Below the pieces are notes generated by a model. The model searched no databases. It was not told the DNA's origin and saw nothing but the letters and a program-made list of their open reading frames with translations. The translations under genes were made by a program, and so were the position numbers. A DNA stretch of 39,059 nt, taken from assembly GCA_009692275.1 (NCBI GenBank), contig SHZL01000001.1, forward strand, positions 1 to 39,059, in the 5' to 3' direction. Origin of the DNA: Lysobacterales bacterium (lineage in GTDB: Bacteria; Pseudomonadota; Gammaproteobacteria; Xanthomonadales; SZUA-36). Shown here piece after piece: positions 3 to 39,059 of this stretch (positions are counted from its first letter, which is position 1; each line of letters starts with the position of its first letter).

Positions 3-1262
3 CTCATCAGTAACATTGTCAACAATCAAACCATGTACGGCGTGGTGCGGGTCAAAGTACCGCTGCAAAACTGCCCTGGCGCAACGAATTGCGCCACAAC
101 TGCAACTGCACTGAATGCGCTGGGTCAGACCGTGGCAGCAAGCACTTTGTACGGCCTGTGCAAGACCAAGACTGGTTTGTGCAATTGCGGCGCAGGAGCC
201 AGCGACATCGCAACCACGGTGGATATCGCGGCCAACAAAACCATCTGCTCCATGACCATTCCACAAAATGTTGCTCCCCCGAACAACAAGAAAATCAAGG
301 TCAAGGGCAGCATGATGTGGGATTTCGTGGACTCCACCACCGGTGACCCGATTCCGCTTGCAAGGCTGCCATGGGCGCCGCGCGACCTGTACTTCAAGGT
401 CAGCCTCCCGATCGCCGTGAACGGGGACCATGATGTGAATGGTGATGGCGCCATGGACAATATGTTGTATATCCAGTCGCTGTCCGCCGACCAGGATCCC
501 GGCATCATCGCTCCCACGATTGATTACCTCAAGATACCGGACAGCACCAAGGCGGACTTCCTCTACTACACCGGCGAAGCATTGACAGCGACGAAGTTCG
601 CCGCCCTGGACAGGCCAACGCAATACCACATGCTCATGGCCAACGGCTATCCCTCCGGTTGGGTGGAGGCATTCACCCGGCTGGATATAAGCCGCAGTGA
701 ATGGACCAGCATTCCGGGTGTTCAGCCGTCGTTGACTATGCCCCCAGGCGGCGCCATTATCACGGAAGACGATGTGCGCAGTCCCTTGTTCGAGGACATA
801 CCGGCCTATTTGTACACCGGCGGCCTGATCGATATGCACGACCAGGTGAATATTTCCGGGCTGCTCTATGTGCCCCAGGGCATGGAACTGGAAGCAAAAA
901 ATGGTTCCAACGCCAGCCCGCAACCCACCCGGCAATACGTGATTGGGGCCATCGTGGTGCGCGACAGCTTCTACATTGAGGCGAAGGTCGGTGAAACAGC
1001 CACCGTGATCAGTTCCGAGCCGGCAATTTATTCCACTGCACAGATATCGGCAAACGCGGCCTTGTCCTCCAATGCCCGTGACATGGTGTTTGGCAGCAGT
1101 GTTGCCTCATCCACCACGATTTCGGGGGATGATGACGGGGAAGATGACGACGACGATGAGCCGACCGGCGTAGCCGGTACCTGCTACACGAGTTGCGCCC
1201 CATCCAGCGAGTCCGCGCATCCACCCGGCTCCAGTCGCTGGATTGAGGTTCGACCGGAATAG
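3..1262 (+). CDS. Hypothetical secreted protein, 5' end probably outside the window; possibly type IV pilus-associated (weak)
   Basis: Long ORF with its first ATG at 33, but the frame stays open back to base 3. N-terminal part is Cys-rich, with a GDDDGEDDDDDE acidic tract near the C-terminus. The ending ...SRWIEVRPE resembles the W-x-E-V endings I recall for PilX-type pilus proteins (recollection only). TAG stop at 1260 is backed up in frame by TGA and TAA within 4 codons, and a strong terminator follows. Confidence 0.55.
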   Translation, partial: LISNIVNNQTMYGVVRVKVPLQNCPGATNCATTATALNALGQTVAASTLYGLCKTKTGLCNCGAGASDIATTVDIAANKTICSMTIPQNVAPPNNKKIKVKGSMMWDFVDSTTGDPIPLARLPWAPRDLYFKVSLPIAVNGDHDVNGDGAMDNMLYIQSLSADQDPGIIAPTIDYLKIPDSTKADFLYYTGEALTATKFAALDRPTQYHMLMANGYPSGWVEAFTRLDISRSEWTSIPGVQPSLTMPPGGAIITEDDVRSPLFEDIPAYLYTGGLIDMHDQVNISGLLYVPQGMELEAKNGSNASPQPTRQYVIGAIVVRDSFYIEAKVGETATVISSEPAIYSTAQISANAALSSNARDMVFGSSVASSTTISGDDDGEDDDDDEPTGVAGTCYTSCAPSSESAHPPGSSRWIEVRPE

Positions 1263-1475: not shown

Positions 1476-4469
1476 GTGATGAGACCAGGAAACGTGAATA
1501 ACCATCGGCGGCAAGCGCTCATTTACGCGTGCTTTTTTCTTTCCGGCACCGCCGGTTTGATTTACGAAGTAGTGTGGGCGCGCCAGCTGGGCCTGTTCCT
1601 GGGCATCACCTCGTACGCCCACACGGCGGTTATTGCTGCCTATATGCTGGGTCTGGCCCTCGGCAGCTGGCTGCTGGGGCGCGGGTCAGATCGATTCCTG
1701 AATCCCTTGCGGTTTTATGCCTGGCTTGAACTCGTGATCGCGCTGTTTGCGGCCACCACGCCGTGGCTGTTTGAATTCCTCCAGTCGGCCTACGCCAGCT
1801 GGGCCGGGATCGCGGGCGTCACCGGCAACAGCGCCCATCTGACGCGCTTCGCCATTGCCCTTGCAGCGCTGCTACTGCCTACTTTTCTGATGGGTGGCAC
1901 CTTGCCCTTGCTGGTCCGCGGCGTAGTGCACAGTTTGCCCCAGCTCGGCGCCGTGACGGGCCGTCTGTATGGCCTCAACACGCTGGGCGCCACGCTTGGG
2001 ACGGCCCTGGCGGGTTTCGTCCTGCTACCGTGGCTGGGGGTAGTCAATACCATTTTCTGCGGCGTAGTAATCAACATTGGCATCGCACTCGTAATCCTGA
2101 GTTTGCCGCGGGCTGTGGTGGCTCCGCAGACAGCCCGCACGCTGAAAGACGATACAGTGATGGATACACCCGCCCTCACCTCAGCTCTCACCCCAGAGCT
2201 CACCCCAGTTCTCACTATGGGCCAGCGGGTATTTTTGTTGACGGGATTCGCGGCCGCAGGCTTTGCTGCTCTGCTGATCCAGTTGGCCTGGATTCGCAGC
2301 ATGGTGCTGGTGGTGGGGGGCAGTGTCTATGCCTTCAGTATCACGCTTACATCCTTCCTGGCCGGGATCGGTATGGGCAGCTTGATTTACAGCCGCTGGT
2401 TGAGCAGGCGCCAGTTGCCGGACGAGCGCTTTGCCCTGGCCGCGTCCCTGGCGTTCTTTGCCGGTCTTGCAATATTGCTGGGCCTGCTGGTCATCGTCCG
2501 CTTGCCGCGCTGGTTCCTGCAAGGCTACGACGCGGGTTGGGTGGACGATTTTGCGACCTACCAGGTCTTCATTTTTGCCTTGAGCCTGGCGCCGATGATC
2601 CTGCCAACCCTGCTGATGGGCGCCCTGTTTCCCTTGCTGGCAGTAACCTGGACCCGCAGCCAGGAAAGCGCGGGCCGCGGCATCGGCAGTGCTTATGCCG
2701 TGAACACCCTGGGCACGATTTTTGGCGCCTTGCTCGGTGGCCTTGTGCTGCTCCCCTCGCTGGGCATACAGCACAGCATAATCCTTGCTGCCGGTATCTA
2801 CGTAGCTGCTGCCATTGGGTTTTGGCTGGCCGCGCATCATCCCAGGCCCCTGACGACCGCGGTTGCCGTGTCTGTCTTCTTGCTGGCTGCCTACCTTCTG
2901 CCCTCCTGGGACCGCATGATGATGGCCCGGGGCATTTACTATGAGCCACAACAGTATGTCGAAGGTTTACATGATGGCGATCTGGAAGGCGTGGTGCGGG
3001 CAGAACCCCTGTTGTATTACGGCGAAGGCCTGGAAGGCACGGTCTCCGTCGTCCAGGAAGAGGTACAACGCGCGTTGCGCATCAATGGAAAAGTGGACGC
3101 CAGCAGTGAATCCGACCTGCAATCCCAGGTCAGTGCCGGCCAGCTGGCGGCCCTGATTCACCCGAAACCCCGTAACGCCCTGCTAATCGGATTGGGCAGC
3201 GGCGTTACCGCCGGAGCCCTGCTCACCCATCGCTCGATCGGAGAGCTCACGGTGCTGGAGATGTCACCGCAGGTGGTGGAGGCATCCGCATTTTTCGCCG
3301 ATACGAACCGCCACGCGCTAGAGGATTCCAGGCTGAAACTGGTTTCGGCCGATGCACGCAATTACGTGCTCGCCGCAAGGCAGCAATGGGACCTGATCGT
3401 TTCCGAGCCCAGCAATCCCTGGATCAGCGGTGTATCCAACCTCTTCACCGAGGACTTCTTTCGCCTGGCCAAGACCAGACTGGCCCCGGGTGGCATCATG
3501 ACGCAGTGGTTTCATTCCTACAGCGTAACCGCCGAGGATGTAAAATCAGTGCTACACGCTTTTTCCTCCAACTACGCCTATGTCACCATCTGGCATATGC
3601 AATATGGTGACCTGTTCCTGCTCGGTTCCGACCAACCGTATTTCCTCGACCAGCAGAAACTTCAGGCGGCCCTTGCTGACCCCGTGATCGGTCCTGACTT
3701 GCGCCGCGCAAACTTGGGCACGCCGCGTGAACTGTATCGCCATTTCCTCGCCTCGGGCGGATCGCTGACCGATTACCTGGCGGGGGCGATCACCAACAGT
3801 GACCGGCGACCCCATATTGAATTCAGTGCGCCTCGCAGCCTGTATGCCGGCTGGACTGACGCCGGCCTCCTGGATATCGCCCGGATTCTCAACGGCCAGA
3901 AGTTTGCCTTGCCCCTGCAGAACCAGGTTGCAAGCGACCGTAGCGGTATTACCAACACCGCCATGGGCCTGCAGGTCCGCGCATTGCTCGAAACACCGCA
4001 AGAAAACCTGCAGGCGTGGTGGTGGGTGTGGCGGGAAGCGTCCTGGCGCACTCCCGCGCCCACGCCCGACATTGGAGACCTGCGCGAGATGTCGTGGTCC
4101 GAGGGCGGCCTGCCCATCCAGGTTCAGTTAGAGCAATTTGATTTCTCCCCCGACCTTGACGTTCGCGCCCGCGAGCTATACGCCCAACTCAAACTGCCGG
4201 TAGTAGCGGGCGGCATGCTGGACAAGTCGGGCGACGAACACGCCCTCTGGTCGCTCGGCGCCAATGAACGTGCCGACCCCGGGGCCGGACCAGCGTTTGG
4301 CGCCGGTGTCATCGAGCTGGCCTTGAGCTGGACCTGCCCCTTAAGCGAGGGCGCCGTCAATCGCTTCCTGGTCGTGGCCCAACTGGCCGATCCTGGCGAG
4401 GAAGCATGGCCTGAAACTCTGGCCGCTTTCGCCAGCCGTTTTGAATGCCTTAATTTGGGGTCAGAGTAA
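1476..4469 (+). CDS. Fused polytopic membrane (MFS-like) / spermidine synthase-like aminopropyltransferase family protein with a long C-terminal extension
   Basis: About 480 aa of repeated hydrophobic helices, then a SpeE/class-I methyltransferase-like core (LIGLGSGVTAGALL, DLIVSEPSNPWISGVSNLFTEDFF, PGGIMTQW), then roughly 300 aa of unassigned sequence. Start is GTG 1476 or ATG 1479. The last codons and the TAA stop lie inside repeat unit 2. Confidence 0.8.
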   Translation: MMRPGNVNNHRRQALIYACFFLSGTAGLIYEVVWARQLGLFLGITSYAHTAVIAAYMLGLALGSWLLGRGSDRFLNPLRFYAWLELVIALFAATTPWLFEFLQSAYASWAGIAGVTGNSAHLTRFAIALAALLLPTFLMGGTLPLLVRGVVHSLPQLGAVTGRLYGLNTLGATLGTALAGFVLLPWLGVVNTIFCGVVINIGIALVILSLPRAVVAPQTARTLKDDTVMDTPALTSALTPELTPVLTMGQRVFLLTGFAAAGFAALLIQLAWIRSMVLVVGGSVYAFSITLTSFLAGIGMGSLIYSRWLSRRQLPDERFALAASLAFFAGLAILLGLLVIVRLPRWFLQGYDAGWVDDFATYQVFIFALSLAPMILPTLLMGALFPLLAVTWTRSQESAGRGIGSAYAVNTLGTIFGALLGGLVLLPSLGIQHSIILAAGIYVAAAIGFWLAAHHPRPLTTAVAVSVFLLAAYLLPSWDRMMMARGIYYEPQQYVEGLHDGDLEGVVRAEPLLYYGEGLEGTVSVVQEEVQRALRINGKVDASSESDLQSQVSAGQLAALIHPKPRNALLIGLGSGVTAGALLTHRSIGELTVLEMSPQVVEASAFFADTNRHALEDSRLKLVSADARNYVLAARQQWDLIVSEPSNPWISGVSNLFTEDFFRLAKTRLAPGGIMTQWFHSYSVTAEDVKSVLHAFSSNYAYVTIWHMQYGDLFLLGSDQPYFLDQQKLQAALADPVIGPDLRRANLGTPRELYRHFLASGGSLTDYLAGAITNSDRRPHIEFSAPRSLYAGWTDAGLLDIARILNGQKFALPLQNQVASDRSGITNTAMGLQVRALLETPQENLQAWWWVWREASWRTPAPTPDIGDLREMSWSEGGLPIQVQLEQFDFSPDLDVRARELYAQLKLPVVAGGMLDKSGDEHALWSLGANERADPGAGPAFGAGVIELALSWTCPLSEGAVNRFLVVAQLADPGEEAWPETLAAFASRFECLNLGSE

Positions 4470-8270: not shown

Positions 8271-8431
8271 CTTCCTTCTACCCGGGAAACAGGACAAGTC
8301 ATCCATTCAGGCGCATGTATTGTTGGCATTGCTCGTAGAACCTATGTCACACTGCAACAAATCCTTAACAAGTTTGCGTTGTCCATGCAACCAAAGAATT
8401 TTTGTTTTCGACCCCAACCGAGGAAAACATC

Positions 8432-11332
8432 GTGAAGCAATTCAATCGCAAACCGTTATCCAGCGCCATTTCACTCGCCATTGCCGGCACTGCCCTGGCG
8501 GCCATGGTTGTCCTGCCCGCCTATGCCGAGGAAGGCACACTCGAAGAAGTGACGGTCACGGCAACGAAGCGTACAGAAAACCTCCAGGACGTGCCCATTT
8601 CCATCCAGGTGCTGGGCGCCAAGGAACTGGAAGAGTTGCAGATCAGCAGCTTCGATGATTACATCACGTGGTTGCCCACCGTGTCCTACCAATCCAACGG
8701 GCCGGGCTATGGCATTGTTTACATGCGCGGTATCGCCAGCGGCGGCGATGGCGTTCATTCCGGTTCCATGCCCAGCGTAGGCTACTACCTCGATGAACAG
8801 CCGATCACCACCATCAACCAGATTCTCAACGTGCACGTGTATGACATCGCCCGCATTGAGGTCCTGGCCGGCCCCCAGGGCACGCTGTTTGGCCAGGGCA
8901 GCCAGGCCGGTACCATCCGCATCATCACCAACAAGCCGGAGATTGGCGTTAACGAAGGCGGTTACGATTTCTCTGCCAACTCCACCGCGCACGGCGACCC
9001 GGGCTACGGCATCGAAGGCTTCATCAATATTCCCATCAACGACCGCATGGCCGTCCGCCTGGTGGCCTGGCACGAGTACCAGGGTGGTTACATCGATAAC
9101 GTTCACAAAACAATGGAGTACGACATCAGCCACATTGTCCGAGACAATGCGGATTTGGTGGAAGCCAACTTCAATACCGCCGAAACCACCGGCGCGCGGG
9201 CGCTGCTGAAAATCGACCTGAGCGACGACTGGACCCTGACGCCCGGCATCCAGTACCAGAAGGGCAAGACCAACGGTATGTGGTTCGACAATCCCAAGTT
9301 CGTGGGCGAATATGAAGTGGCACGCTTCAACCCGGACAAGGCCAAAGAAGACTGGTACCAGGCAACCTTGACCCTGGACGGCCAGATCGGTGATCTCAAC
9401 CTGGTGTATGCCGGGGCTTACCTGGATAGAAATGTCGACAGTACCTACGACTATTCGGGTTATGCGGAGTACCTCGAATACGCTTATTCAGGCTATGGCT
9501 ACGAATGCTTCTATTACCTAGCTGATGGTAGCTGTGCCGACCCCACGCAATACGTGGTCAGCGACGAAGAATTCACCCGCTTCAGCAATGAACTGCGCCT
9601 GCAGTCCTCCCAGGATCAGCGCTTGCGCTGGATTGCCGGCCTGTTCTACCAGCGACAGGAACACTATTTCGACCTGCAGTGGACCGTGGACGAATTGCAA
9701 ACGGTCAAATCCGTGGTCGAGAACGGCCACGTGGTCTGGCAGACGAACCAGGACCGCGTCGATATAGACGGCGCCATTTTCGGTGAGGCTTACTTCGATA
9801 TTACCGACAACTGGACGCTGATCGGTGGTGTGCGCGGGTTCAAATGGGAGAATTCGCTGTACGGCTTCAACGGTTTTCTGAAGCACTGCACCGGTTATTA
9901 CGACGCGCAAGGCGATTTCGTCCAGGAGCCGGCAAGCGAAGGGGGCACGCCGCAGTATCCCTGCTACGACACCGGCATCCTGGATGATGTATCCAAAGGC
10001 CATGATACCGCCTGGAAAGGCAGCACCGAATACCACATCGACGGCGACAAAATGGTGTATGCGACCTATTCCCAGGGCTTCCGTGCCGGCGGCGTCAACC
10101 GCGCCAGGGTTGAGGGAATTCCGAAGTACCAACCGGACTTTGTGTATAACTACGAATTGGGCTGGAAAACCATGTGGGCGAATGGACAGCTCCGTTTCAA
10201 CGGCGCCCTCTACATCGAAGACTGGGAGAACTTCCAGTACGGTTTCCTGGATTTTGAAGCGTACGGCCCAGTGACCATCATCCAGAATGTGGGTAATGCC
10301 CGCACCAAGGGTTTTGAGTGGCAAATGGATTGGGCTCCGACCGAAAGCTTTAGCCTGAGCTTCCAGGGCTCTTACAACGACGCCAAGCTGACGACCGACT
10401 TCTGGCGCGTCAAGGCAGAAGAAGCCGCGGGCTTGCCGCCAACCTCCCCGAAGGGAACGGAAATGCCCTTCGTGCCGCCGCTGCAAATGACCAGCATTGC
10501 CCGTTACAACTTCACCATGGGTGAATTGGCTTCTTTTGCGCAGGTTGCGGTCTCGTACCGGGCTTCAGCCTGGACCTCGCTGGACCACGAAATTCGCGAG
10601 AATCCGGATATTGGCGGGAAGATGCCTGCCTACACCGTGTTGAACCTGTCGGCCGGCTTTGAACGGGACAACTGGACCGTTACATTTTACATGAACAATG
10701 CAACCGACAAGCGTGGCTTGACGGACATCCTGAACCCCGGCTATTACAGCCCCAGCGGCTTTGACTACAACCAGGTCATCATCCAGCCGAGAAATATCGG
10801 CATTCGCTGGACCCAGCGGTTTAACGGTGGCTATGAAGAAGCCTCATCACCACCGCCAGCGCCACCACCACCACCCGCCGCACCGCCGGAGAATCCGGAT
10901 CTGGACGGGGACGGCGTGCCGAACGCGCGTGACAAATGCCCCAATACCCGTCCGGGTGCAGTGGTAGACCTTGACGGTTGCGAAGTGGAAGCGGTGATTT
11001 CACTGGAAGGCGTGCATTTTGAGTTCGATAAAGCCACCCTGACCCCGGAAGCCATGGCCATCCTCGACAAGGCAGCCGGATTGCTGCAGTCACAGGAAAA
11101 GGTGGTAGTGGAAGTTGCCGGTCACACCGACAGCGTGGGTTCGGAAGAGTACAACCAGAAGCTGTCTGAGCGCCGCGCCGTTGCGGTGAAGGACTACCTG
11201 GAAAGCAAAGGTATAAAGGCCACCCGCCTGACCGCCATGGGCTACGGTGAAGCACAACCGGTCGCCAGCAATGATACCGACGCAGGACGGGCGCTCAATC
11301 GCCGCGTGGAGTTGATCGTACTGTCCCGTTAA
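8432..11332 (+). CDS. TonB-dependent receptor fused to a Pro-rich linker, a thrombospondin-type-3-like Ca-binding repeat and an OmpA C-terminal-like peptidoglycan-binding domain
   Basis: GTG 8432 is preceded by GAGGA (8420-8424). Signal peptide ends AYA, followed by plug-type sequence TLEEVTVTATKRTENLQDVPISIQVL. The barrel ends with the canonical terminal motif NIGIRWTQRF (Phe codon 10820-10822). The frame then continues for 169 aa: SSPPPAPPPPPAAPPENP, DLDGDGVPNARDKCPNT, and an OmpA-like core (FEFDKATL, VAGHTDSVGSEEYNQKLSERRA, NRRVEL). Confidence 0.85.
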   Translation: MKQFNRKPLSSAISLAIAGTALAAMVVLPAYAEEGTLEEVTVTATKRTENLQDVPISIQVLGAKELEELQISSFDDYITWLPTVSYQSNGPGYGIVYMRGIASGGDGVHSGSMPSVGYYLDEQPITTINQILNVHVYDIARIEVLAGPQGTLFGQGSQAGTIRIITNKPEIGVNEGGYDFSANSTAHGDPGYGIEGFINIPINDRMAVRLVAWHEYQGGYIDNVHKTMEYDISHIVRDNADLVEANFNTAETTGARALLKIDLSDDWTLTPGIQYQKGKTNGMWFDNPKFVGEYEVARFNPDKAKEDWYQATLTLDGQIGDLNLVYAGAYLDRNVDSTYDYSGYAEYLEYAYSGYGYECFYYLADGSCADPTQYVVSDEEFTRFSNELRLQSSQDQRLRWIAGLFYQRQEHYFDLQWTVDELQTVKSVVENGHVVWQTNQDRVDIDGAIFGEAYFDITDNWTLIGGVRGFKWENSLYGFNGFLKHCTGYYDAQGDFVQEPASEGGTPQYPCYDTGILDDVSKGHDTAWKGSTEYHIDGDKMVYATYSQGFRAGGVNRARVEGIPKYQPDFVYNYELGWKTMWANGQLRFNGALYIEDWENFQYGFLDFEAYGPVTIIQNVGNARTKGFEWQMDWAPTESFSLSFQGSYNDAKLTTDFWRVKAEEAAGLPPTSPKGTEMPFVPPLQMTSIARYNFTMGELASFAQVAVSYRASAWTSLDHEIRENPDIGGKMPAYTVLNLSAGFERDNWTVTFYMNNATDKRGLTDILNPGYYSPSGFDYNQVIIQPRNIGIRWTQRFNGGYEEASSPPPAPPPPPAAPPENPDLDGDGVPNARDKCPNTRPGAVVDLDGCEVEAVISLEGVHFEFDKATLTPEAMAILDKAAGLLQSQEKVVVEVAGHTDSVGSEEYNQKLSERRAVAVKDYLESKGIKATRLTAMGYGEAQPVASNDTDAGRALNRRVELIVLSR

Positions 11333-11355: not shown

Positions 11356-11381
11356 GCCCCGCGATGCGGGGCTTTTTCTTT
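11356..11381 (+). terminator. Rho-independent terminator
   Basis: GCCCCGC (11356-11362) / GCGGGGC (11366-11372) stem followed by TTTTTCTTT, 24 nt after the stop at 11332. Confidence 0.85.
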
Positions 11382-11520
11382 GGCAGTCCTCTATTCCGAC
11401 CAAACCCCCGTGGCATCCTTCACGTGCCACCCATCTTGCATGACGCCAATTCATTACCTGCATTCACTGAAATATCTTACCGGCGACCAGTCGCGAGTGA
11501 CGCATTATCAGGACCATGTC

Positions 11521-11886
11521 ATGGGCAGCTTTACATGGTTATCATCGCATGATAACTTTAGTCGGGCTTCATCGGTGAGCCGCAAGCACTCCATCAACCA
11601 TGGGCTGGAGGCATGGCGAGTGGCAGAAAACCCGCACCGGCCTCATGGCATCCGCTATTGCTTTACCTTGCATGATGAGAGCAACCAACGCCTTCTGGGC
11701 TACGACAATGCACATGCCGTGAGCGGTCGTAAACGGGCCTCCGCGTCGCGAAAACCCGAGTGGGACCACCGCCACGAAGCTGAAGCGGTACATTTCTACC
11801 CGTTTGTCGGTGCGGAACAGTTGCCGGTTGATTTCTGGAATGATGTTGAACGATTGGTGCGCGTATCGGAGCGGTCAACGAAATGA
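11521..11886 (+). CDS. DUF6516-like protein (family annotated in some databases as a TumE-type toxin)
   Basis: Pattern WRV..., HGIRYCFTL, RLLGYDNAH, DHRH, PF..AEQL..DFWNDVERL matches my recollection of the DUF6516 family. ATG 11521 is preferred because the upstream start at 11380 overlaps the terminator; ATG 11440 remains possible. It overlaps the next gene by 4 nt (ATGA). Confidence 0.6.
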   Translation: MGSFTWLSSHDNFSRASSVSRKHSINHGLEAWRVAENPHRPHGIRYCFTLHDESNQRLLGYDNAHAVSGRKRASASRKPEWDHRHEAEAVHFYPFVGAEQLPVDFWNDVERLVRVSERSTK

Positions 11887-12248
11887 ATGAAAAGGTATTG
11901 AAAATCGGCATCATGTCACGGGACGATTACCGGCACAGAGCCATTGAGATTGCCAGCGGCCGGTGTAAAGCGGGCAAGAACGATCCCAAGGTCTGGTTTG
12001 AGTCAATTCGATCGCTGGCCCAGGTGCTAAGTCCTGAGAACCAGAACTTATTGCGGGTTATCCTGGAACATGAACCGCAGTCACTGGCGGAACTCGAGCG
12101 GCTGAGTCAGCGTAAGAAGTCCAACCTTTCACGCACGCTGCGAACTTTGGAATCATTCGGCATTGTCGAATTGCCGAGAAATAGCGGCAGACTGGCGCCC
12201 AGGGTCCTGGCAACCGACTTTCGATTGGAGTTCGGGTTGAATCACTGA
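11883..12248 (+). CDS. Winged-helix (MarR-like) DNA-binding protein, putative antitoxin/regulator partner of the DUF6516 gene
   Basis: LKIGIMSRDDYRHRAIEIASG...PKVWFESIRSLAQVLSPENQNLLRVI...SLAELERLSQRKKSNLSRTLRTLESFGIVEL is a typical wHTH with an SNLSR recognition helix. The ATGA overlap suggests translational coupling to the upstream gene. Confidence 0.65.
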   Translation: MNEKVLKIGIMSRDDYRHRAIEIASGRCKAGKNDPKVWFESIRSLAQVLSPENQNLLRVILEHEPQSLAELERLSQRKKSNLSRTLRTLESFGIVELPRNSGRLAPRVLATDFRLEFGLNH

Positions 12249-25853: not shown

Positions 25854-27689
25854 TCAACCTGCTGCTTCACCCTTTTTCTGCTCAATATACTGCCGCACCA
25901 GCACCTCCAGGGTATTGAGCGGCATGGAGCCATTGGTCAGCACCACGTTGTGGAACTCACGGATGTCGAACCGGTCACCCAGCTCGGACCTGACCAATTC
26001 CCGCAACTCCAGGATCTTCATCATGCCTACTTTGTAGGCCGTGGCTTGTCCCGGCAGTACGAAATATCGTTCGATCTCGGCCACCACGTCACTTTCCGCC
26101 ATGCCGGTGTTGGCCAGCATGTAGGCTATGGCTTGCTCGCGCGTCCAGCGCATGGCGTGAATGCCGGTATCAACCACCAGGCGCACTGAGCGAAACAGTT
26201 CCGCCTGCAACCGGCCAATGTTGTCGTTCGGGTCTTTGAGGAAACCCAGCTCCCACGCCAGGCGCTCCGCGTACAAGGCCCAGCCTTCACTGTAGGCCGG
26301 AAAAGGCGCCAGCCGGCGGAAGAACGGCAAGTCGTCCTGCTGTTGCTGGATGGCCAGCTGCAAATGATGCCCGGCTACGGCCTCGTGGTAGGCCAGTGTG
26401 CGCATGCCGTAGCGGGGCGTGGCCTTGGTGTCGTACAGGTTGGCATAGAACTGCCCCGGCCTCGACCCGTCCATGGCCGGTGGGTTGTAGTAACCGCCGG
26501 GAGCGGTCTTTCCCTTGAATTGCGCTACCCGGCGCACTTCCACCCCGGTGTTGGGTTTTACGTCAAAATACGGCTCCAGCCCAGCCGACACTTCATCGAT
26601 GATTGCCTGGTACTGCGCCAGTATTTCTTCGCGGCCTTCACCCGTGTCAGAAAAATAAAACCGCGGGTCTTCTGACATGGCTGTGATGGCGGCAGTAAAG
26701 CCGGCGGAAACATGCCAACCCTCCTGTGCCAGGATGTCGAGAATCTCCGCCTGGATGCGGGCAACCTCGCTCAGGCCGACATCGTGGAGGTGCGGCGGCG
26801 TGTAGTCGGTGGTGTTGAACAGCTTGAGTGACAGACGGTAGTACTCTTCACCATCCGGCAGGCTCCAGGCTCCATAATTTCCGTCCACCAACCGGTCCAG
26901 CGCCTCAAAGAAGCCGAGCAGCCGCCCGTAGGCCGGGTACACCGTGTTTTCAATGGCTGCCCGGGCCGCAAGGGCAATGCGCTCCTGTTCGTCTTCGGGC
27001 AGCTTGGCTTTTTGCATCTTGTCCAGTAAGGCCGTCATCAGGATGTTGTCTGCTGCGGGCGTGGCCACAAACCCGTTCATTTCATCCACTACCTTGGTGA
27101 TGACAAACTGTGGCGGGTTGATGTGCAAATCTTTCCGGCGTTGCAAACCTTAAATCACCTGGTCGAACTGGACTCCCACGGCATTGAGGCGGCTGACATA
27201 ATCCTCCGCATCGCCAACGCTGTCGAGCTGGTGGTCGGATTCCATGAACGATGGAAATTCGCTTTGAATACCCGACATCTGGTTGAGCGGAAAGGTATGG
27301 AAACGAAATCGTTCACCGGCGACCAGATTGCCCAACAGGAAGTCAGCAATCTGCCTGGACATCAGGTCACGGGGGCTTAAGTCCTCATTACGGTAGGACT
27401 GCGAGACGTTTTCTGCCGCCTTCATCTTGACAAAAAAGGCATCGCCCGCTGCAAGGCTTTGATCATCCAGCCGGGCATTGTGCCCGGTGATGCCAAAAGG
27501 CTCGAGTACATGCAGGGAGCTGAGCATCTCCGGGCTGTCCAGCAGCAACTGCACCATGGTTCGGCCAAAAAACAGATTGATGTTGACCGGTTTGAAATAC
27601 CAGGTGTGTGCGAGGAATAGACCGGCCGCCAGCCCCACCAGCGCGCGCATAATACCGCCAAACTTAAGAATTTTTTTCAATAGCTTCAT
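25854..27689 (-). pseudogene. DUF885 family (metallopeptidase-like) gene interrupted by an in-frame TAA
   Basis: ORFs 27689..27150 and 27146..25854 share a frame (both starts are 2 mod 3). They read ...VGVQFDQVI-TAA-GLQRRKDLHINPPQFV..., which is continuous DUF885-like sequence. The HEAVAGHHLQ motif lies in the downstream part, and an N-terminal hydrophobic anchor is present. Confidence 0.8.
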
Positions 27690-28686: not shown

Positions 28687-30926
28687 CTATTCCCCGCATT
28701 GGGTCCCCTGGTTAAGCTCAATGATGGCCAGGTCAGACGCGTCAGTTAACCCATCCAGGTTGATGTCGTACCAGCTGCTTTCCCCCGACGACAGCACCGC
28801 GAAGTCGCTCCAGTCTGCTTCGTCCAGCCCGTTGACCACACCGTCGATGTTGCCATCGCCGATGCAAGGGGGCTGTGAGGTTAGGATCTGCACCAGTCGC
28901 CCGGTCAATTCGAGGTAGTTGGCTTGCTGTCCCGGTGTGAGCGCGGGTAGTTGGAGCAGATCGAGATTCTCGCGATCGATTCGCGGCAGTGGCACGGCTT
29001 CGCCGATGGCATAGAACTCGTCCGAAACTTCCACATCGCAACCCGGCGGGCTGTCCGGATCTGGCTGGGCGTCGCCGCGGTAGGAGTTCCTCACCACCTT
29101 GTAGCCAACGTTGCGGACGGCAACAGAGCTGAGGGGTTGCAGGTCGAATAGTGGCTCGGCGTTGGCATACAGGAACTGGTTCACCTGGCAGCAATACTCA
29201 AGGCCCTCCGGCAACGGGATCCCGGCGGTGACCGGATCGTCGGCTCCCTCGCCCCACCACGTCCCGTTATTGTCCTCGCACACCGTCTTGGTGACCGGAA
29301 TCTGCGTGCAACTGTTGCTGATGGTGCAGGGCCCATTGTGGGCGCCATCGGCCTGGGTGTTTGGGCCGACCTGGGTGAAATTCCAGCTGCGTATGCTGGT
29401 TTGTTTGGGGTTGGTCAGATACGGCAGCATGGTCACCGAATCGAGCGTGCGTGGCACGCTCGCTGGCACATTGATGTGGGCGATCTGGCCGAACAATTGG
29501 TACAGGTCGGCAACGTTCACCATGTGCGTAACCGAACGGTTGGGTTTCTTGACCAGCGGCCCGGCGACGACAAGGGGCACCCACACGCCGGTCTGGTAGG
29601 CCGTGCCCTTCGCACGGTTCGGGTCGAAGGGCAGCTTCACAGCGCCGCCCAGCGTGCCATTGTCACCGAGGATGACGATCATCGTGTCGTTGTTGTTCGG
29701 GTTGTACTTCAGCTTGCCATCGTGGCCACGGCGCGCAATACCGGTGGAAACCAGCAGACGGGCAAATTCGGTATCCAGCGCCTCGATCATCAGGTTAGTC
29801 AGAACGCGCTGCTCCACGGACATCGAACTCTCACAGCTGAGGCCGCTGGTTGCCGCCGCGTCGGACGTCAGCAGCCTCTGGGGCGGTTGCATCACCGGCG
29901 TGTGCGCCGAAGAGAAGCTGACGCTCGCCATCCACGGCTGATGCTTGCGCTGGCGCTTGATCCAGTCAATGGCTGCGTCGACCTGCACGGTGCCGCGGTA
30001 GGTGCGCGCTCGAATGTCGGTCGGCGACACCTCCAGGACAGCGCCATGTTCGTCGTTAATGACCAGCGGCGATACGTAATGTGCGCTCAGGTTTTGGAAC
30101 CCGGTTTGAATGTTTGCGGGCATCTGGAACTTACAATGCTGGTCCGGGTCGAGGATGCCGCCACCGTCGCGGCAAGCGCGGCCCGGCGGAACGCCACCCG
30201 ATGTGCTCATCTCCGTGCACAGGCCATGGGAGGCGTAACAAGCACCGAAGTCAGCTCCACCAGCTGCTGCGCCGGGCACGAAGCCGCAGGAATAAGACTC
30301 CTCATTCACGGCAACACCACCGGCCGACCTGTCGATCGAAGCCGGGTCGCCGGTCTCGTCAAGCCAGCCGAAGAAGTAGTCCCAGCCGAGCGAACGCGGC
30401 ATGGCGTTATGGAAAGGGTTGTTGCCTTGCAATCCCAGGTGAAACTTGCCGAACAACGCGCTCTGGTAGCCGCGCTGCTTGAGTAACGAAGGCAGGCTCA
30501 CCTCGAAGGGCGAGACACCTGGGCGTTCGCCAAGTCATCAGGGCCCAGCGCGCCATAGACGTTGGTGCGAAGGGGGAAACGGCCAGTGAAAAACACCGCT
30601 CGGCTAGTGGAGCACGCAGGCATCGACCAGGTGTTACTGAAGCGGATGCCCGCATTGGCGATCGTGTCGATGTTCGGCGTGCTCGGCGGCGTTTCGCCGC
30701 CGTAGCCGAATGTCTTCATCTGGTCAATGCCGACATCGGCCATGATGATGAACAGGATGTTCGGCGATTTCGGCGCCGCCTGCACCGCGATCGGTTGCAA
30801 GCCTAACGCGAACAGGGCTAGAACCACGGCGAGCGACTGCCACGCGCCGACGCGACCAACGTTTCGTGGGAATGGGTGGTGCACAGCGCGCTTTGCCGTC
30901 GCCGGCTTCGGCTTCGAAGCACGCAT
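28687..30926 (-). pseudogene. Secreted sulfatase (alkaline-phosphatase superfamily) with dockerin-like C-terminal repeats, frameshifted
   Basis: The N-terminal piece (30926..30498) has PNILFIIMADVG and the active-site block MPACSTSRAVFFTGRFP. The second piece (30501..28687, different frame) continues with LPSLLKQRGYQSALFGKFHLG. The frames can only be joined within 30501-30546. C-terminus has GDGNIDGVVNGLDEADW and DINLDGLTDASDLAII. Confidence 0.8.
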
Positions 30927-30967
30927 AGTTCCGATCACATTCAACGTTCGCAACTCCTGCCTCCCAC

Positions 30968-32176
30968 TCAAACTCTTGCGATCGGTCGCTTTCCTGATCC
31001 ATTCGTCTCGTGCTTTTGCGCCACCGCTTCCTGCAGCAGCCATTGCCCCCCGGGTGGCAAGGACGCTTCGGACTCCCCGCCCGACTCCTTGGGTTCCGGT
31101 TGTTCCAGCTTCGCCACTGGGTTGGCGTGCTGCATGCAGAGCCGAAGGTCGTTGGGCTTGTCGGCGTTGGCCAGCGCCTGCGCATGGTCGATTCTGCCCT
31201 CCGAGTAGAGTCTCAGCAGATCCTGGTCAAACGTCTGACATCCGCTGCTCGTTCCGTTTTGTATGCCATCTTTAACCTTGTCCACCTGCCCCGACTTGAT
31301 CAGGTCTTTTACGTACGGGGTATCACGCAGGATTTCCACCACTGCCACGCGCTTGCCGTCGATCGACGGTACGAGACGCTGCGCGATGATCGCGCGCAGA
31401 CACATGGAGAGCTGCAGATAGATCTCCTCGTGCCGCTCGCCAGGAAAAAAGTTCATCACTCGGTGAAGCGTCTGGTAGGCATTGCTCGAGTGCAGCGTTC
31501 CCAAGCAGAGATGCCCCGTGTCGGCGAAGGTGATCGCAGCTTCCATCGCCATTCGATCACGGATCTCTCCAATCAGAATGACGTCCGGCGCCTGGCGCAA
31601 TGCGTTCTTGAGCGCATCATTGAAGGAATGTGTGTCTGTTCCGACCTCCCGCTGGGTGACAATGCACTTCCTGTTGGGGTGGATGAACTCGATGGGGTCT
31701 TCAACGGTGATGATGTGTCCGTCACTGTGTTCGTTTCGGTGATTAAGCATAGCAGCCAGCGTTGTGGTTTTACCTGATCCCGTGGCCCCGGTGACGAGAA
31801 TGAGACCCCTTTTCTGCAAGACGATGTCTTTGAAGACACTCGGGAACTGTAGTTGGTCGAGGGTAGGGATCGTTGTCTTGACATGGCGGATGACGATCCC
31901 GATGCTGTCGCGCTGTCGGTGCAGGTTGACCCGAAAGCGGCCAATATCGTCAAACCCGATTGCCAGATTCATCTCCAGGGCCTGCGCAAACGTCGCTTTC
32001 TCCGCATCGGTCATGAGGGAATTGGCCAACGTTTCGGTTTGAGTCGAGCCGAAATGTTGCGTTCCGATTGCGTGATTCACCCCCTCCGCGCGAATCAGGG
32101 GAGGGCTGTTCGTTGTAATGTAGAGGTCAGAAGCCTCACGATCGACCATTTCGCGCAGCAGCGCCTGGATGTTCAT
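30968..32176 (-). CDS. pilU: PilT/PilU-family type IV pilus retraction ATPase, PilU-like
   Basis: Walker A GATGSGKTTTLAAM, Asp box ITVEDPIEF, Walker B DVILIGEIRD, and His box GHLCLGTLHSSNA (PilU-like). ATG 32176 gives MNIQALLREMVDREASDLYIT. A low-complexity tail of about 45 aa is atypical. Confidence 0.85.
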   Translation of the reverse strand: MNIQALLREMVDREASDLYITTNSPPLIRAEGVNHAIGTQHFGSTQTETLANSLMTDAEKATFAQALEMNLAIGFDDIGRFRVNLHRQRDSIGIVIRHVKTTIPTLDQLQFPSVFKDIVLQKRGLILVTGATGSGKTTTLAAMLNHRNEHSDGHIITVEDPIEFIHPNRKCIVTQREVGTDTHSFNDALKNALRQAPDVILIGEIRDRMAMEAAITFADTGHLCLGTLHSSNAYQTLHRVMNFFPGERHEEIYLQLSMCLRAIIAQRLVPSIDGKRVAVVEILRDTPYVKDLIKSGQVDKVKDGIQNGTSSGCQTFDQDLLRLYSEGRIDHAQALANADKPNDLRLCMQHANPVAKLEQPEPKESGGESEASLPPGGQWLLQEAVAQKHETNGSGKRPIARV

Positions 32177-32750: not shown

Positions 32751-33398
32751 ATGAGGCCGACACGAGTTGTTTTAGCGGATGACCATGCTCTTGTACTGGG
32801 CGCGTTTCGCCACTTGTTGTCCTCCGTTGCCGATTCCCAGATCGAAATTGTTGGAACTGCGGCCAACGGCCGCGAATTGATCAAGGTTGTCCGCGAACAG
32901 AAACCGGACGTTGTCGTCACTGATATTTCCATGCCGCTGCTGAATGGTCTTGATGCGGGAATCAAGCTGCTGAAGCTGATGCCTGGGCTCAAGATCATTT
33001 TCCTTACCGTCAATGATGATCCAGACCTGGTGGCTGACGTCATCCGCGCAGGGGCAAAGGGCTACCTGCTCAAAAACTCGGTTACCTCAGAACTTCTCCA
33101 GGCGATACGTGCCGTCGCTTCCGGTTCCACCTACATCACTCCCCTGGTGACGGGCAACATGCTAAGTTCCATTATTCAGGGTGACAAAAGAGAGCGGTTC
33201 AGCAAACTGACAGTGCGGCAGCGTGAAATCCTGCAACTGCTGGCCGAAGGCAGAACGATGAAAGAAACCGCGCGGGTGCTCAGCGTCACGCCGCGGACAG
33301 TGGCATTTCACAAGTATCGCATCATGGAAACCCTGGGCGTGGAAAACAACGCCCAACTGATCCGCTTCGCCGTGCGCAGCGGATTGCTCCCAGCCTGA
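32751..33398 (+). CDS. NarL/FixJ (LuxR-type HTH) response regulator
   Basis: Receiver domain (VVLADDH, VVVTDISMP, FLTV, KGYLLK) plus a LuxR HTH (LTVRQREILQLLAEGRTMKETARVLSVTPRTVAFHKYRIMETLG). GGAGG at 32739-32743 lies 7 nt before the ATG. Confidence 0.9.
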   Translation: MRPTRVVLADDHALVLGAFRHLLSSVADSQIEIVGTAANGRELIKVVREQKPDVVVTDISMPLLNGLDAGIKLLKLMPGLKIIFLTVNDDPDLVADVIRAGAKGYLLKNSVTSELLQAIRAVASGSTYITPLVTGNMLSSIIQGDKRERFSKLTVRQREILQLLAEGRTMKETARVLSVTPRTVAFHKYRIMETLGVENNAQLIRFAVRSGLLPA

Positions 33399-33465: not shown

Positions 33466-33833
33466 AACATGTCATTTCGCGAAAAGGAACTTCGCTAACA
33501 GAAAGTATTGGGCATGGACGCAGATGCAAGGATGCACGAACACTGGCGCGGGGAAGTACAGTTAGGCCTGGTTAGCGCATAGAACCGGGAAGTTCATCCG
33601 GTGCTGCCAGGGGAACGACAGGGAAGTCTTTCCCGGCACCGGATGTGACGCAGGAAGCACGCAAGGAAAACATCCGCCGTTTCTGAATGGAAACGGCCAT
33701 TCTGCCTGACGTCCCGGCAGGCAAGGTTCACTAGACCGGGGTACATATCAGGGAAGATGAGGAAATGGAAACTGTAAAGGGAAAAGGACAATTCACGAAC
33801 ATGCCGCCGCCTGCGTTACACCACCGTGGGCTA

Positions 33834-34358: not shown

Positions 34359-35616
34359 ATGTCTGCTGTAATGAGGAGTGACAAGCTCCGGCAATTGCGG
34401 GTCTTGATCGTGGATGACAATTCCGGAGACCGCTCCTTATACCGGTACATGCTTAAGGAATCAGATCCCGCCACGGGCTATGTGTTCCAGGAAACCGAGT
34501 CAGGACGAGCGGCCATGGACCTGATCCGGTAGGAGGTCTTCGACTGTGTCCTGCTGGGCTATTTGCTGCCTGACATGGTCGGTCTTGACGTGCTGAAAAC
34601 AATAGCAGAGCAGACCAAAAGCCCCATATTGCCCACCATCATTTTAACCGGCTTCGGTGACGAAGCGACGGCCGTGCATGCCTTGCAGGGTGGTGCGCAG
34701 GGCTATTTGCCCAAACGCGACCTGAACGGGGAAGAGCTGGGCCAAGCCATCAATTGCGCCATCAAAGCTCACAAGCGACAGATGCTGGTGGAAAAATCGC
34801 GTTTGGAAATGGTTGCCAAGAACCAGGAGCTGACGGGCAAGTACCAGCAGGTGGAGGCTTTTAATCAGCAAATCCTGGGTAAATTCAAGAAACCGGTGTT
34901 GGCGCTGCGTGACCATATTGCTGAACTGACCGTGGAGGAAACCCGCCCGATGAACGGCAACCTGCAAAGCCATTTGTTAAACCTTAAACTGCAAAGCGAA
35001 CGGCTAGTGACCACGTTGAAAGACCTGATGGACAACCCGGGACTGGAAGTGGGCCAGTTATTGATTGCCACCCGACCCGAGGCAATCGTGGAACTTTTAT
35101 CTGCCACCGTGAATAACTTCCGGACGCTGGCAGAGGCAAGAAACATCCGCTTTTCGGTCAAAATCCAGCCGGGATTGCCGGAAGTACAAATGGCTCGGTA
35201 TCGCATTGAACTAAGTGCTGGTAAATCTGCAGGACAACGCAATCACGTTCACCCCACCGCACGGAAACGTATGCTTAACTGTGGAGCGGCGCATGGGGCC
35301 CCCGGATAATATAACGGTTACTGTGATCGATTCCGGTCCAGGCGTTGATCCTGGGCGGCTGGCAGTCCTGTTTGAGCAAAATGCCCATCAGCTGCCCGGC
35401 GGTTCTGAAGTCGATCAGGGGATGGGGCTGGGCCTGAAAGTGTGCCGGGAAATTATTCAGTCACACCAGGGCAGGATTACCGCCGAGAACCTTCCCCAGG
35501 GTGGGGCCTGCATGACCTTTACGCTGCCGCTTGATACCAGCAAAGCACCAGCAGCGGAGATCCAGGGAAAAGTTTCATGCAATAACGGGTCTGCCCAGTG
35601 GGGCCTGCATGCTTAA
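34359..35616 (+). pseudogene. Receiver-DHp-HATPase protein with degenerate phospho-sites, an in-frame TAG and a frameshift
   Basis: ATG 34359 (AGGGGAAG upstream) opens a REC domain (RVLIVDDNS...). TAG at 34530-34532 is in frame with ORF 34563..35309. The acceptor position reads LLGY (Gly where Asp is expected) and the H-box position reads ILGKFKKP (Gly where His is expected). Removing one base near 35212 restores RIEQVLVNLQDNAITFT (N-box) into ORF 35215..35616, which carries G-box motifs DSGPGV and GMGLGL. Confidence 0.75.
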
Positions 35617-37731
35617 GCTCCCACCTGCTGGACTACAGTCCATCGGCGCTATTGCCGCAACCGAGACCATGCCCATGGACCTTGGCACTTCGAGCCGGAG
35701 GCGCCAAGCGCTGAACTGGTTGCCTGCGCAGTGGCCGCACCCCCGCCTGATCGCCTACGCAGCCCTGGTGATTGCGCCATTACTGCTGTTTGCCGAATTG
35801 CACCAGAAGCCGTTCGACGTCAACATCATCAGGTTCCTGGTGGCCGACGCGACCGGGATTGCGCTGGCCCTGATGATTGGGCTTGTTGGGCTTGCCTACT
35901 ACCAGAGCTTCAAAACCCGGTCCTTGCTGTTCATTTCCATTGGGTTCATAGGCAGCGGCATCACCGACCTGGTTCATCTCGTCCAGACGTTAAACACCAA
36001 TCAGCATATGTTTCCGGTGTTGTTTTTTCAGGTCAAAGAGTGGAGTACCCTGGCGGCGCATTTGTTTCTTGCCATCCTGTTACTGGTGGGTTGGCGGACT
36101 GCTGAAGACCACATTTCACCGCGCGCGACATCTGAACTGGGTACCAAAGGCATCCATTGGTTTGTAATTGCCTTGATTTTGTTGACTTTCAGCAAGGCCT
36201 TGCTTACCCCTTTGGCAGTCCATGCTGGTGGCTCCGTGGATCTGACCGCGCACGGTCTGCGCCTTGCTGGTTACGCCATGGCTTTTGTCGCCCGGTTGTC
36301 CAGTACCCCGAACCTGTTGCACCAGGCCAGCAGCATACAATTGGAAGATCGTATTAATTCATTGATTCGCGAGTATGGACGCACGCACAGCCCTGGCTTC
36401 GTTTCGACCGTCCAGGACCAGCGGATAACGGGTTCCGGTACGTTTGAGCTGGACCTTGAGACCGGGCGAGAATGATCGAAGCATTGCGGCGCAGCCAGGT
36501 CGATGGAGAACTGTTCAAACAGCAGTTCCGGGTGGCGAGCTCTGGCGGCTATCGCTGGATGGAATCCATCGGCGGAATCGAGTGCGTAAATGGCAAGCCC
36601 ATCCGCCTGTTGGGATTTACCAATGATGTTACCGAGCGCAAGAACATTGGGCTGGAGAAAGACAGACTGTACCTGGAACTTGATCAGCCAATCGCCGCAT
36701 TGGACAAGTATGCAATTACCGCTGCGCTGGACCTGGAAGGCGTCATCCAGGCGACAAACGGGCTATTTTGCGAGTTTTGTGGCCTGGAAGAGGCGGAACT
36801 GATCGGACAGAAGTTCGCCTCACTTTTAATGGAAGATTTAACCGAACGTCCTGGCGGAGATATCCGGTAGACCATGCGCGACGGAACGACCTGGAATGGG
36901 TACGTGTCGCTGCGTGATTCACGCAGCGCAGAGCGCACAGCGAATGTCCCGCTGTCACCGCATCTGAACGACGACTCCGAAATTGACACATACGTTTTCC
37001 TGGGCCTCGATATAACTTCCCGTGTTGCCGCCAGGCGGGCTCTCGAGGTGAGTATTGAAGAGCATAAAAAGTCCAACCAAGAGCTGCAAATGTTCGCGCA
37101 CATCGTTTCGCATGATTTGCAGGAACCGATGCGCATGGTGTCGAGCTTCATGACCCTGTTGGAGCGGCGCTAGGCGGCAGACCTCAACCAGGAAGCCCGG
37201 GAGTATATCCAGTTCGCAGGTGAAGGCGCCGCACGGATGCGAAGTCTGTTGGATGGCCTACTGGAATATTCCCGCGTGCGATCCAGGGACATGGTGTTAG
37301 AGCAAATTCGCCTGAACAAACCGGTCGCGGACGCCATGGCAAACCTGGCCGTTCTCATTGGCGAGCGCGAAGCACAGATCACGGTTGCGGCGCTGCCGGA
37401 GGTCTGCGGTGACGGGGTTCAGCTGATGCAGCTGTTCCAGAATCTCATCAACAACGGAATCAAGTTCTGCAGCGCGCCCCCGCCGAAAATCGCCATCGGC
37501 GCCCACCGGGAAGAAGGGCGCTGGGTTGTTGAAGTCAGCGACAATGGCATCGGTATCGCCCCGGCGCATTATCAAAAGATCTTTCAGATTTTCAGCCGCC
37601 TGCACTCGCGCGAAGCGTATCCCGGCACCGGCGTGGGCTTGGTCTGCAAGCAAATCATGGAGCGTCTCGGCGGTCACATCGACGTCGCATCAATGCCCGG
37701 CCAGGGCACGACCTTCAAACTATGTTTCTGA
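35609..37731 (+). pseudogene. Membrane sensor-PAS-PAS-HisKA-HATPase histidine kinase interrupted by a frame break and two in-frame TAG codons
   Basis: Polytopic N-terminal module (35609..36475). A frame switch occurs at the ATGA at 36472-36475, inside a PAS domain (GTFELDLETGRE / IEALRRSQVDGELFKQQFRVASSGGYRWME). TAG at 36868-36870 and TAG at 37171-37173 are both in frame with the flanking ORFs (all starts 1 mod 3). H-box SHDLQEPMRM, N-box QNLINNGIKF, G-boxes DNGIGI and GTGVGL. Confidence 0.75.
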
Positions 37732-37732
37732 T

Positions 37733-39059
37733 CAGGCGGATTGTCTGTACGCCGTGGCAATGGCCAGGTACAGGCTGCCCAACCTGAGCGGTTTGGCCAG
37801 GAATTGCGCAAATCCGGCTGCTTCTGCCTTTGCGATCAATTCCGGCGAGGCGCCTGCAGACAGCGCGACACCGGTATATCACAGGTGCGTTGGTCATTCC
37901 TGAGCAGTTCCAGGGTTTCGAACCCCCCAAACCCAGGCAGGTTGATGTCCATCAGTATCAGGTCGGGCGATGAGGATTTTGCCAGCGCCACACCATCACG
38001 TCCATTGTATGCGGCAACAAAATTACAGCCCGGAATAATCCGGACGATCTCCGTCATCAGACTGATGCTGGCCACGTCATCCTCCACATACAGAATTCGC
38101 CCGCCTTCAAGCTCTTGAGTCTAAGCCGGTGTTGTTGCATCGCCTGCGAATGATTCGCAGTCAGTTGCGGATGCAGTCGGAATGTCGAACCAAAACGTCG
38201 ACCCGATGCCAACTTCGCTGTCGAAGTCGATGCTGCCGCCCATCAATCCAGCCAATTTCTTGCAAATACTGAGCCCGATCCCGGTCCCTTCAATCCTGCA
38301 GTGGGGTTCAACTACGCGCTCAAACGGTTCGAACAGGCGTGCCCGGTCGCTGGGATGGATTCCACGGCCACTGTCCTTGATGCAGATGCGCGTCATCAGA
38401 TCCGGCACGGTCGAGATGCTCACCGCGATCGTCCCGCCGGGCTTGTTGTACTTAATGGCGTTGGACAGCAGGTTAACCAGGATTTGTCGTGAGCGATGTG
38501 GATCGCCAATGACATCCGCAGAGTCTGCGGCAGGCGAATGGATGGTGATGCGATTCTTTTCGGCGAGCAAGCTGACCATGGACAGGGCGGTCTGCATCTC
38601 CTGAACCAGCGAGAATCTTTGCAGGTTAAGGGGGGTATGACCGCTATCGATGCGCGAGAAATCCAGCACGTCTTCGATCAGGCGTAACAGGTGATCACCG
38701 CCAGCCAGGATATGGTTGATGCCTTCGTTCTGCTTTGGCTTAAGGTTTTCGTTGTCAATCTGCAGCAATTGGGCAAAACCCAGCACCGCGTTCAAGGGTG
38801 TGCGCAGTTCGTGGCTCATGCGTGACATGAATGCGGACTTGGCGGAATTGGCTCGCGTGGCTTCATCCCTGAAAATCTGCAGCTCTCGCTGTGCGACTTG
38901 TTCCAACTCGGTATCGACTACATTGAAGACCATGCCCGCAATGGCGTCATCTGCACGTCTTATCATGCTGAGCGACAGGTGGGCAAATAAAGTCTTTCCG
39001 CTGGCGTGTCTTAACTGCAGCGCGAATACCCGGTTCGTGGAATCTCCCGGCAGCAGGAC
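37733..39059 (-). pseudogene. Hybrid PAS-HisKA-HATPase-REC sensor kinase (5' end outside the window) with an in-frame TAG at the kinase-receiver linker and a frameshift in the receiver
   Basis: The frame is open from 39059. H-box MSHELRTPLNAV, N-box NLLSNAIKYN, G-boxes DSGRGI and GTGIGL. TAG (38123..38121) is followed in the same frame by TQELEGGRILYVEDDV...LILMDINLPG (REC). Inserting one G near 37866-37871 restores DIPVVALSAGASPELIAKAEAAGFAQFLAKPL up to the TGA at 37735..37733. Confidence 0.7.

Follow-up and report, generated by a model that had tools for sequence, protein, structure and literature searches.

In-frame amber codons in a two-component signalling module of a Lysobacterales bacterium are most probably nonsense mutations in decaying genes

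In-frame amber codons and the systems that resemble them

In pyrrolysine systems the amber codon (TAG) is decoded by means of pylT/pylS/pylBCD, and in-frame TAG is found in the genes for methylamine methyltransferases. Reassignment of TAG, for instance to Gln in some phages and protists (e.g. Ivanova et al. 2014), is a different case. There the codon occurs in many genes, stands opposite one aligned residue, and genes avoid ending in it. In the present work we analysed contig SHZL01000001.1 from a Lysobacterales bacterium, a single contig of 39,059 nucleotides (nt) that makes up the whole of what is called the window below, in which four in-frame TAG codons (sites 1 to 4) interrupt three adjacent two-component signalling genes, denoted genes A, B and C. 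A third kind of described system to which this locus can be compared is the unitary pseudogene of bacteria, which arises through nonsense mutation, frameshift and deletion under relaxed selection (surveys e.g. Liu et al. 2004, Kuo & Ochman 2010). Our analysis makes it highly probable that the four TAGs are ordinary nonsense mutations in a signalling module that is decaying, and that translation ends at them as usual. Pseudogenisation of this kind is an already known phenomenon.

The locus resembles unitary pseudogenes in several respects: relatives carry intact orthologues, each gene has several independent types of lesion, the lesions lie at conserved positions, the spectrum of stop codons matches the codon content, and neighbours belonging to the same module have been hit together. 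Nothing material sets it apart from them, the lesion density being fairly high here (eight in 4.7 kb for the signalling module). With pyrrolysine systems it shares the presence of in-frame TAG within conserved protein domains, but the interrupted genes encode sensor kinases and not mtmB/mtbB/mttB, the residues concerned are Glu, Gln, Tyr and Leu/Arg, the contig has no Pyl gene or tRNA, and TAG serves on it as a common functional terminator. The close spacing of several in-frame TAGs is reminiscent of TAG reassignment; here, however, they are confined to frameshifted genes and correspond to four residues, while intact genes end in TAG. With regard to family, the ancestral genes belong with the COG4251-type ('bacteriophytochrome-like') kinases, which have the SHDLQEP H-box and MASE3/PAS inputs, and with phosphorelays made up of hybrid kinase, Hpt and REC. 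This assignment is based on Pfam matches (MASE3, PAS_3/PAS_4, HisKA, HATPase_c and Response_reg) and on the JGI names of homologues. Unlike in such kinase systems, members have been inactivated on this contig.

Lesions in genes A, B and C and their intact orthologues

The frame around each TAG was judged from three-frame translations. For domain assignment, the frames of genes A, B and C were mended conceptually, with X placed at each TAG, and the resulting proteins were scanned with Pfam. An earlier interpretation of the same DNA, made from the letters alone and here called the sequence-only reading, had described the four TAGs (positions in Table 1) as being in frame with domain sequence on both sides, and this is also what the translations display. 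The Pfam matches to the repaired proteins likewise place the codons where that reading had put them, that is, in a REC domain, a PAS domain, the DHp helix after SHDLQEP and a kinase-receiver linker. Inspection of the codons agrees with it as well that genes A, B and C contain no in-frame TGA or TAA, and the frame breaks that it had noticed in the same genes could be located by alignment as a +1 insertion in gene A, a 109-nt deletion in gene B and a 1-nt deletion in gene C.

Five relatives were available for comparison. The syntenic locus L001, from a Gammaproteobacteria metagenome-assembled genome (MAG; CAVPUV010000002.1), came from one scan of species-representative genomes, and the loci L161, L162, L165 and L166 were obtained through protein searches and contig look-ups. 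Genes A, B and C are intact in these relatives wherever they are covered, with order and orientation kept. Gene A is 418 amino acids (aa) long in L161, L165 and L166, and is cut by the contig end in L001. Besides gene A, L161 carries gene B (487 aa) and L166 gene B (803 aa), while L162, which is a Xanthomonadales MAG, covers part of gene B and in addition gene C (924 aa). The closest relative is L165, with 76–85% nucleotide identity to the window. Its genes are arranged as T2SSE, a sulfatase (759 aa), a LuxR regulator, a single REC (152 aa), an open reading frame (ORF) of 156 aa, gene A and the start of gene B, and all of these are intact except the first and the last, which are cut by the ends of the contig. 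A stop or a change of frame at the sites where the window has them was present in none of the five relatives, and the orthologues have sense codons at all four TAG positions, so the in-frame TAGs are not shared with them. Conservation of the site among relatives, by which programmed readthrough or frameshifting would be recognised, was thus not found either. Aligning orthologues at the TAGs had been put forward as a check by the sequence-only reading; the alignment gave Glu (GAG), Gln (CAG), Tyr (TAT) and Leu/Arg for sites 1 to 4, respectively.

At site 1, in the receiver domain of gene A, the window reads ATC CGG TAG GAG where L165 has ATC CGG GAG GAG (Glu), implying a G>T substitution. Orthologues more distant than L165 have Arg or Thr as the corresponding residue. 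As an alternative, site 1 was considered as a single-base indel, in which ATC[C]GGTAGG would be read as GGT AGG and give Gly-Arg, as in L001 and L161; this solution requires a second, compensating indel, and is also contradicted by the sequence of the closest relative, L165. The frame of gene A is lost further downstream, inside the N-box, where the window has GAAC-T-AAGTG and the orthologues are one base shorter (GAGC-AGGTA in L001 and L161, GAGC-AGGTG in L165 and L166).

Gene B carries two of the amber codons together with two deletions, and its protein is 71% identical to the L001 orthologue, which is intact (805 aa), as is that of L166 (803 aa). The in-frame loss of 61 codons after position 36154, which removed membrane helices, is seen relative to five homologues (L001, L166, P0006, P0008 and P0011). 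The second deletion took away the central part of the PAS domain that comes first: when aligned with L001 and L161, this stretch measures 83 nt in the window as compared to 192 nt in L001, and the frame changes at about position 36470. At site 2, in the second PAS domain, L001, L161 and L162 all have CAG (Gln), implying a C>T substitution, and the codon just before it, a conserved TGG (Trp), has become CGG in the window. At site 3, just past the H-box, the codon is TAT (Tyr) in L001, L161, L162 and L166, so that the change is a transversion, T>G, or C>G given a TAC ancestor. Tyr is found at this position in eight of nine aligned homologues, the ninth (P0008) having His; the sequence-only reading had supposed a conserved Tyr here, and correctly so.

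Gene B of the window showed no clear acceleration in a relative-rate comparison. Its identity with the outgroup P0002 was 0.661, compared to 0.664 and 0.659 for intact orthologues, and with the outgroup P0004 it was 0.544, compared to 0.570 and 0.557. Judged from these sequence identities, the near-equal distances would fit a recent inactivation, and they give no positive evidence for long-standing relaxed selection. Domain conservation in the decayed genes is accordingly strong because inactivation would have been recent.

Gene C, whose orthologues are intact in L001 (869 aa) and L162, has its TAG at a linker position that is not conserved: opposite site 4, L001 has CTG (Leu) and L162 has Arg. 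The deletion in its receiver domain, at 37868/9, is apparent from the window sequence GTG-TCGCG when set against GTGATTGC in L001 and GTGGTCGC in L162. In both of these relatives a REC-Hpt gene adjoins gene C, which likewise speaks for the phosphorelay families named above. Genes B and C are convergent and their stop codons (TGA at 37729-37731 and TCA at 37732-37734) abut without a single intergenic base, an arrangement that is conserved in L001 (3502-3507).

Table 1. Positions of the interrupted genes, their lesions and neighbouring features in the window
Feature	Coordinates	Strand	Basis
Gene A pseudogene, Response_reg + HATPase_c, 418 aa once repaired	34359..35616	+	Pfam; intact orthologues
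Amber codon 1, Response_reg (receiver) domain of gene A	34530-34532	+	Sequence, Pfam, orthologue codons
+1 insertion (T at about 35212), frame shift inside N-box RIEQVLVNL of gene A	35211..35214	+	DNA alignment
Gene B pseudogene, MASE3-like membrane domain, PAS, PAS, HisKA (H-box SHDLQEP), HATPase_c	35669 (about)..37731	+	Pfam
In-frame 61-codon (183-nt) deletion junction, membrane helices of gene B lost	36152..36157	+	Gap vs homologues
109-nt out-of-frame deletion junction, middle of first PAS of gene B lost	36455..36480	+	DNA alignment
Amber codon 2, second PAS domain of gene B	36868-36870	+	Sequence, Pfam, orthologue codons
Amber codon 3, HisKA/DHp helix just past SHDLQEP of gene B	37171-37173	+	Sequence, Pfam, orthologue codons
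Gene C pseudogene, hybrid kinase (PAS, HisKA, HATPase_c, REC), 5' part beyond contig end	37732..39059	-	Pfam
Amber codon 4, HATPase-to-REC linker of gene C	38123-38121	-	CTA on + strand
1-nt deletion, frame shift in receiver domain (IPV[I/V]ALSA) of gene C	37867..37869	-	DNA alignment
REC-gene remnant, last 22 codons; internal TGA 33684-33686, native TAG stop 33732-33734	33666..33734	+	vs L165
LuxR-type response regulator, intact, beside decayed module	32751..33398	+	Pfam Response_reg + GerE; syntenic 215-aa gene in L165
DUF885 pseudogene, in-frame TAA at 27152-27150	25854..27689	-	Pfam profile split
Sulfatase-family pseudogene, frameshift near 30505-30517	28687..31043	-	Sulfatase profile split between two frames

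The all-amber pattern and how it may be explained

Since each of the TAG-bearing genes is also broken in its frame, readthrough of amber could restore no product from any of them. Moreover, the TAGs replaced four different residues by at least three kinds of substitution, and therefore neither a single recoded meaning nor a single mutational process accounts for them. TAG is also in regular use as a terminator in the window, being the end codon of four of about 24 ORFs. The ORF at 33..1262 ends in TAG AAT AAC TGA TAA, followed by AAAAGCCCCACCCCGGTGGGGCTTTTTT, a GC-rich hairpin with a T-run that forms a textbook intrinsic terminator; in the DUF3574 gene the terminal TAG falls exactly at the last position of the Pfam profile; and the REC gene, too, has a native TAG stop. 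In the remaining ORF codons of the contig (about 10,800) there is no interrupting TAG. A code with reassigned TAG would be expected to avoid it as a terminator, to spread it over intact genes and to set it opposite a single aligned amino acid, and what was found is the reverse on each count. Scans of the contig yielded no tRNA with ARAGORN, no family with Rfam and no Pyl-related family with Pfam.

That all the nonsense codons in genes A, B and C are amber had led the sequence-only reading to raise suppression or readthrough, as well as a very recent burst of mutation, beside the decay that it took as the default. To put a figure on the pattern, all single-base changes to a stop codon were enumerated for genes A, B and C, codon by codon, and for their L001 orthologues, under several weightings of transition/transversion and of GC>AT. 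TAG accounts for 45–56% of the possible nonsense outcomes, CAG>TAG being the largest class, and the probability of four TAGs out of four is 0.04–0.10. When the TAA of the DUF885 gene is included, the probability of at least four TAGs in five becomes 0.13–0.27, and when the TGA of the REC remnant is added as well and TAG is taken as half of the outcomes, that of at least four in six is about 0.34 (our own binomial arithmetic). The all-amber pattern is no more than chance yields. That all four codons are amber is mainly due to CAG, GAG, TTG, TAY and TGG being common in a sequence of about 56% G+C. The probability of finding all four in genes A, B and C is 2.5e-4 if in-frame TAGs are taken as spread evenly over the ORF codons of the contig, as a reassigned code would have them. 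The TAGs track gene inactivation.

Nonsense changes make up about 3% of the possible substitutions, and four hits translate into a neutral divergence of roughly 2.6–3.1% over 4.6 kb after constraint was lost, with a wide error. A mutational burst is not needed: a divergence of about 3% suffices, and the substitutions differ from one another (G>T, C>T, and T>G or C>G). The default of decay, by comparison, is upheld by the intact syntenic orthologues and by the further lesions. Frames are disrupted relative to these orthologues, the lesions are of several types and the spectrum of stops fits the codon pool. In the course of events that we propose, the module, consisting of a REC-ATPase protein, a sensor kinase of the MASE3/PAS kind, the hybrid kinase convergent with it and a small receiver gene, would have lost its function and would then have decayed through ordinary neutral mutation; the four TAGs would have arisen independently, beside single-base frameshifts and three deletions. 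The relaxed selection on the module that this presupposes is something we infer from the lesions.

It should be underlined that certain observations weigh against this explanation or limit its precision. The 9-mer ATCCGGTAG occurs at sites 1 and 2 (34524-34532 and 36862-36870) and nowhere else on the contig, while 0.13 copies are expected, and simple independent mutation predicts this sharing only as a coincidence. The relative closest to genes A, B and C has a nucleotide identity of about 76%, and none nearer was found: a metagenome contig scan with gene B gave nothing above 51% identity, and in a protein search with gene B no relative exceeded 72% identity and fragments from a close relative were absent. 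As no relative is nearer than about 76%, both the age of the lesions and the ancestral state of site 4 are imprecise. In addition, the evidence regarding tRNA and Pyl genes comes from the 39,059 nt of this one contig.

The best surviving alternative is that the lesions are errors of assembly or consensus, as coverage or strain mixing near a contig end in a metagenome could have corrupted the consensus sequence. The locus does lie at a contig end, with gene C running off it, and all ten lesions are found in the last 13 kb. We nevertheless regard such errors as an improbable cause. The ORFs in the first 25 kb are uninterrupted, which speaks for a low rate of error overall; none of the single-base indels lies in a homopolymer; and clean deletions of 109, 183 and about 400 nt are atypical of consensus errors. 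Furthermore, the lesions cluster in a single functional module, and the DUF885 gene aligns with its metagenomic counterparts without gaps at 95% identity across 1,877 nt, save for the GAA>TAA change. From this we infer that the lesions are real mutations.

The shared 9-mer could instead point to a local, sequence-directed process, such as a short-patch templated conversion of site 2 with CCGGTAG of site 1 as the template. None of 100 shuffled sequences contained two copies of the 9-mer, and site 2 differs from the three orthologues by two changes lying 3 nt apart (TGG CAG > CGG TAG), a pair for which a single copied patch would account. From the ancestral sequence ATCTGGCAG at site 2, it was a T>C (Trp>Arg) together with the C>T that created the identity with site 1. 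However, ATCCGG at site 1 is ancestral, being present in L165, and site 2 was already alike in five of six bases, leaving one extra transition to be explained. The codon following site 2 has changed from TCC to ACC, unlike that at site 1, and the identity between the two sites stops at the 9-mer. Sites 3 and 4 as well as the TAA and TGA lesions lie in unrelated contexts. Templated conversion thus appears very improbable, and the identity of the 9-mers is most likely a coincidence in a neutrally drifting pseudogene. The 7-mer CCGGTAG is present in eight copies on the contig compared to 3.2 expected; coincidence and codon usage probably account for the occurrence of both words.

A weak amber suppressor encoded elsewhere in the genome would have made TAG nonsense less harmful than TAA or TGA and allowed it to accumulate preferentially in dispensable genes before the frameshifts came; we hold this to be very improbable. 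Efficient decoding of TAG as sense, be it by a suppressor tRNA, pyrrolysine or a reassigned code, could appeal to the four-out-of-four amber count in genes A, B and C and to a genome that extends beyond the contig, but it is extremely improbable in view of the four different amino acids opposite the TAGs, the frameshifts or deletions in every gene that bears one, the use of TAG to terminate at least three genes of the contig (one of them with back-up stops and an intrinsic terminator), the TAG-free remainder of its ORF codons, the empty tRNA, Rfam and Pyl scans, and the TAA and TGA nonsense codons in neighbouring dead genes.

Decay elsewhere on the contig and its meaning

Nonsense mutation and frame disruption are also seen outside genes A, B and C, including in genes unrelated to the signalling module. 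L165 holds an intact REC gene at the position of the REC remnant, about 400 nt of which are gone from the window; a TGG codon of L165 is TGA in the remnant, whereas the native TAG stop is common to both. The match of the DUF885 gene to its Pfam profile is split over two ORFs in the same frame (7-120 and 125-530), and the metagenomic sequences L163 and L164, with 95% nucleotide identity, have GAA (Glu) at the position of its TAA codon and encode an intact protein of 620 aa. The sulfatase gene is split at …ANAQVS | PFEVSLPSLLKQRGY…, and its L165 orthologue, with 85% nucleotide identity, is intact.

The segment that contains the T2SSE ATPase and sulfatase genes (28696-31837) is inverted with respect to positions 1-3136 of L165, where both genes are oriented like the LuxR regulator. 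A search of both ends of this inversion for inverted repeats gave nothing convincing. An exact look-up of the LuxR regulator in the window matched no record, and a scan of the locus for promoters and terminators gave no greater number of sites than in shuffled sequence.

The first 25 kb contain ORFs without interruption, the longest of them 1,022 codons, and their Pfam coverage is complete. Some of the genes in this part are worth describing in their own right. On the forward strand, a 997-aa ORF (1476-4469) matches a spermine/spermidine synthase domain at residues 557-703 only, the remainder being without a Pfam match. A 976-aa TonB-dependent receptor (8402-11332, forward strand; Plug and beta-barrel) has a C-terminal OmpA peptidoglycan-binding domain, which is an uncommon fusion. 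Two small overlapping genes at 11380-12248, also on the forward strand, match the Pfam families TumE (toxin) and HVO_A0114/MarR-like; situated between the TonB-dependent receptor and peptidase genes, they are likely to form a toxin-antitoxin pair of the TumE type.

Taken together, the lesions break at least six of the contig's roughly 25 genes, a share that suggests a lineage with above-average gene decay; homologue names would make it an uncultured gammaproteobacterium of Xanthomonadales/Lysobacterales type. The significance of the finding is mainly one of annotation. For translation of the contig the standard bacterial code is the appropriate one, nothing in it pointing to an unusual code. 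Genes A, B and C should be labelled as pseudogenes belonging to one signalling module, and the REC remnant as well as the DUF885 and sulfatase genes should be given the pseudogene label too.

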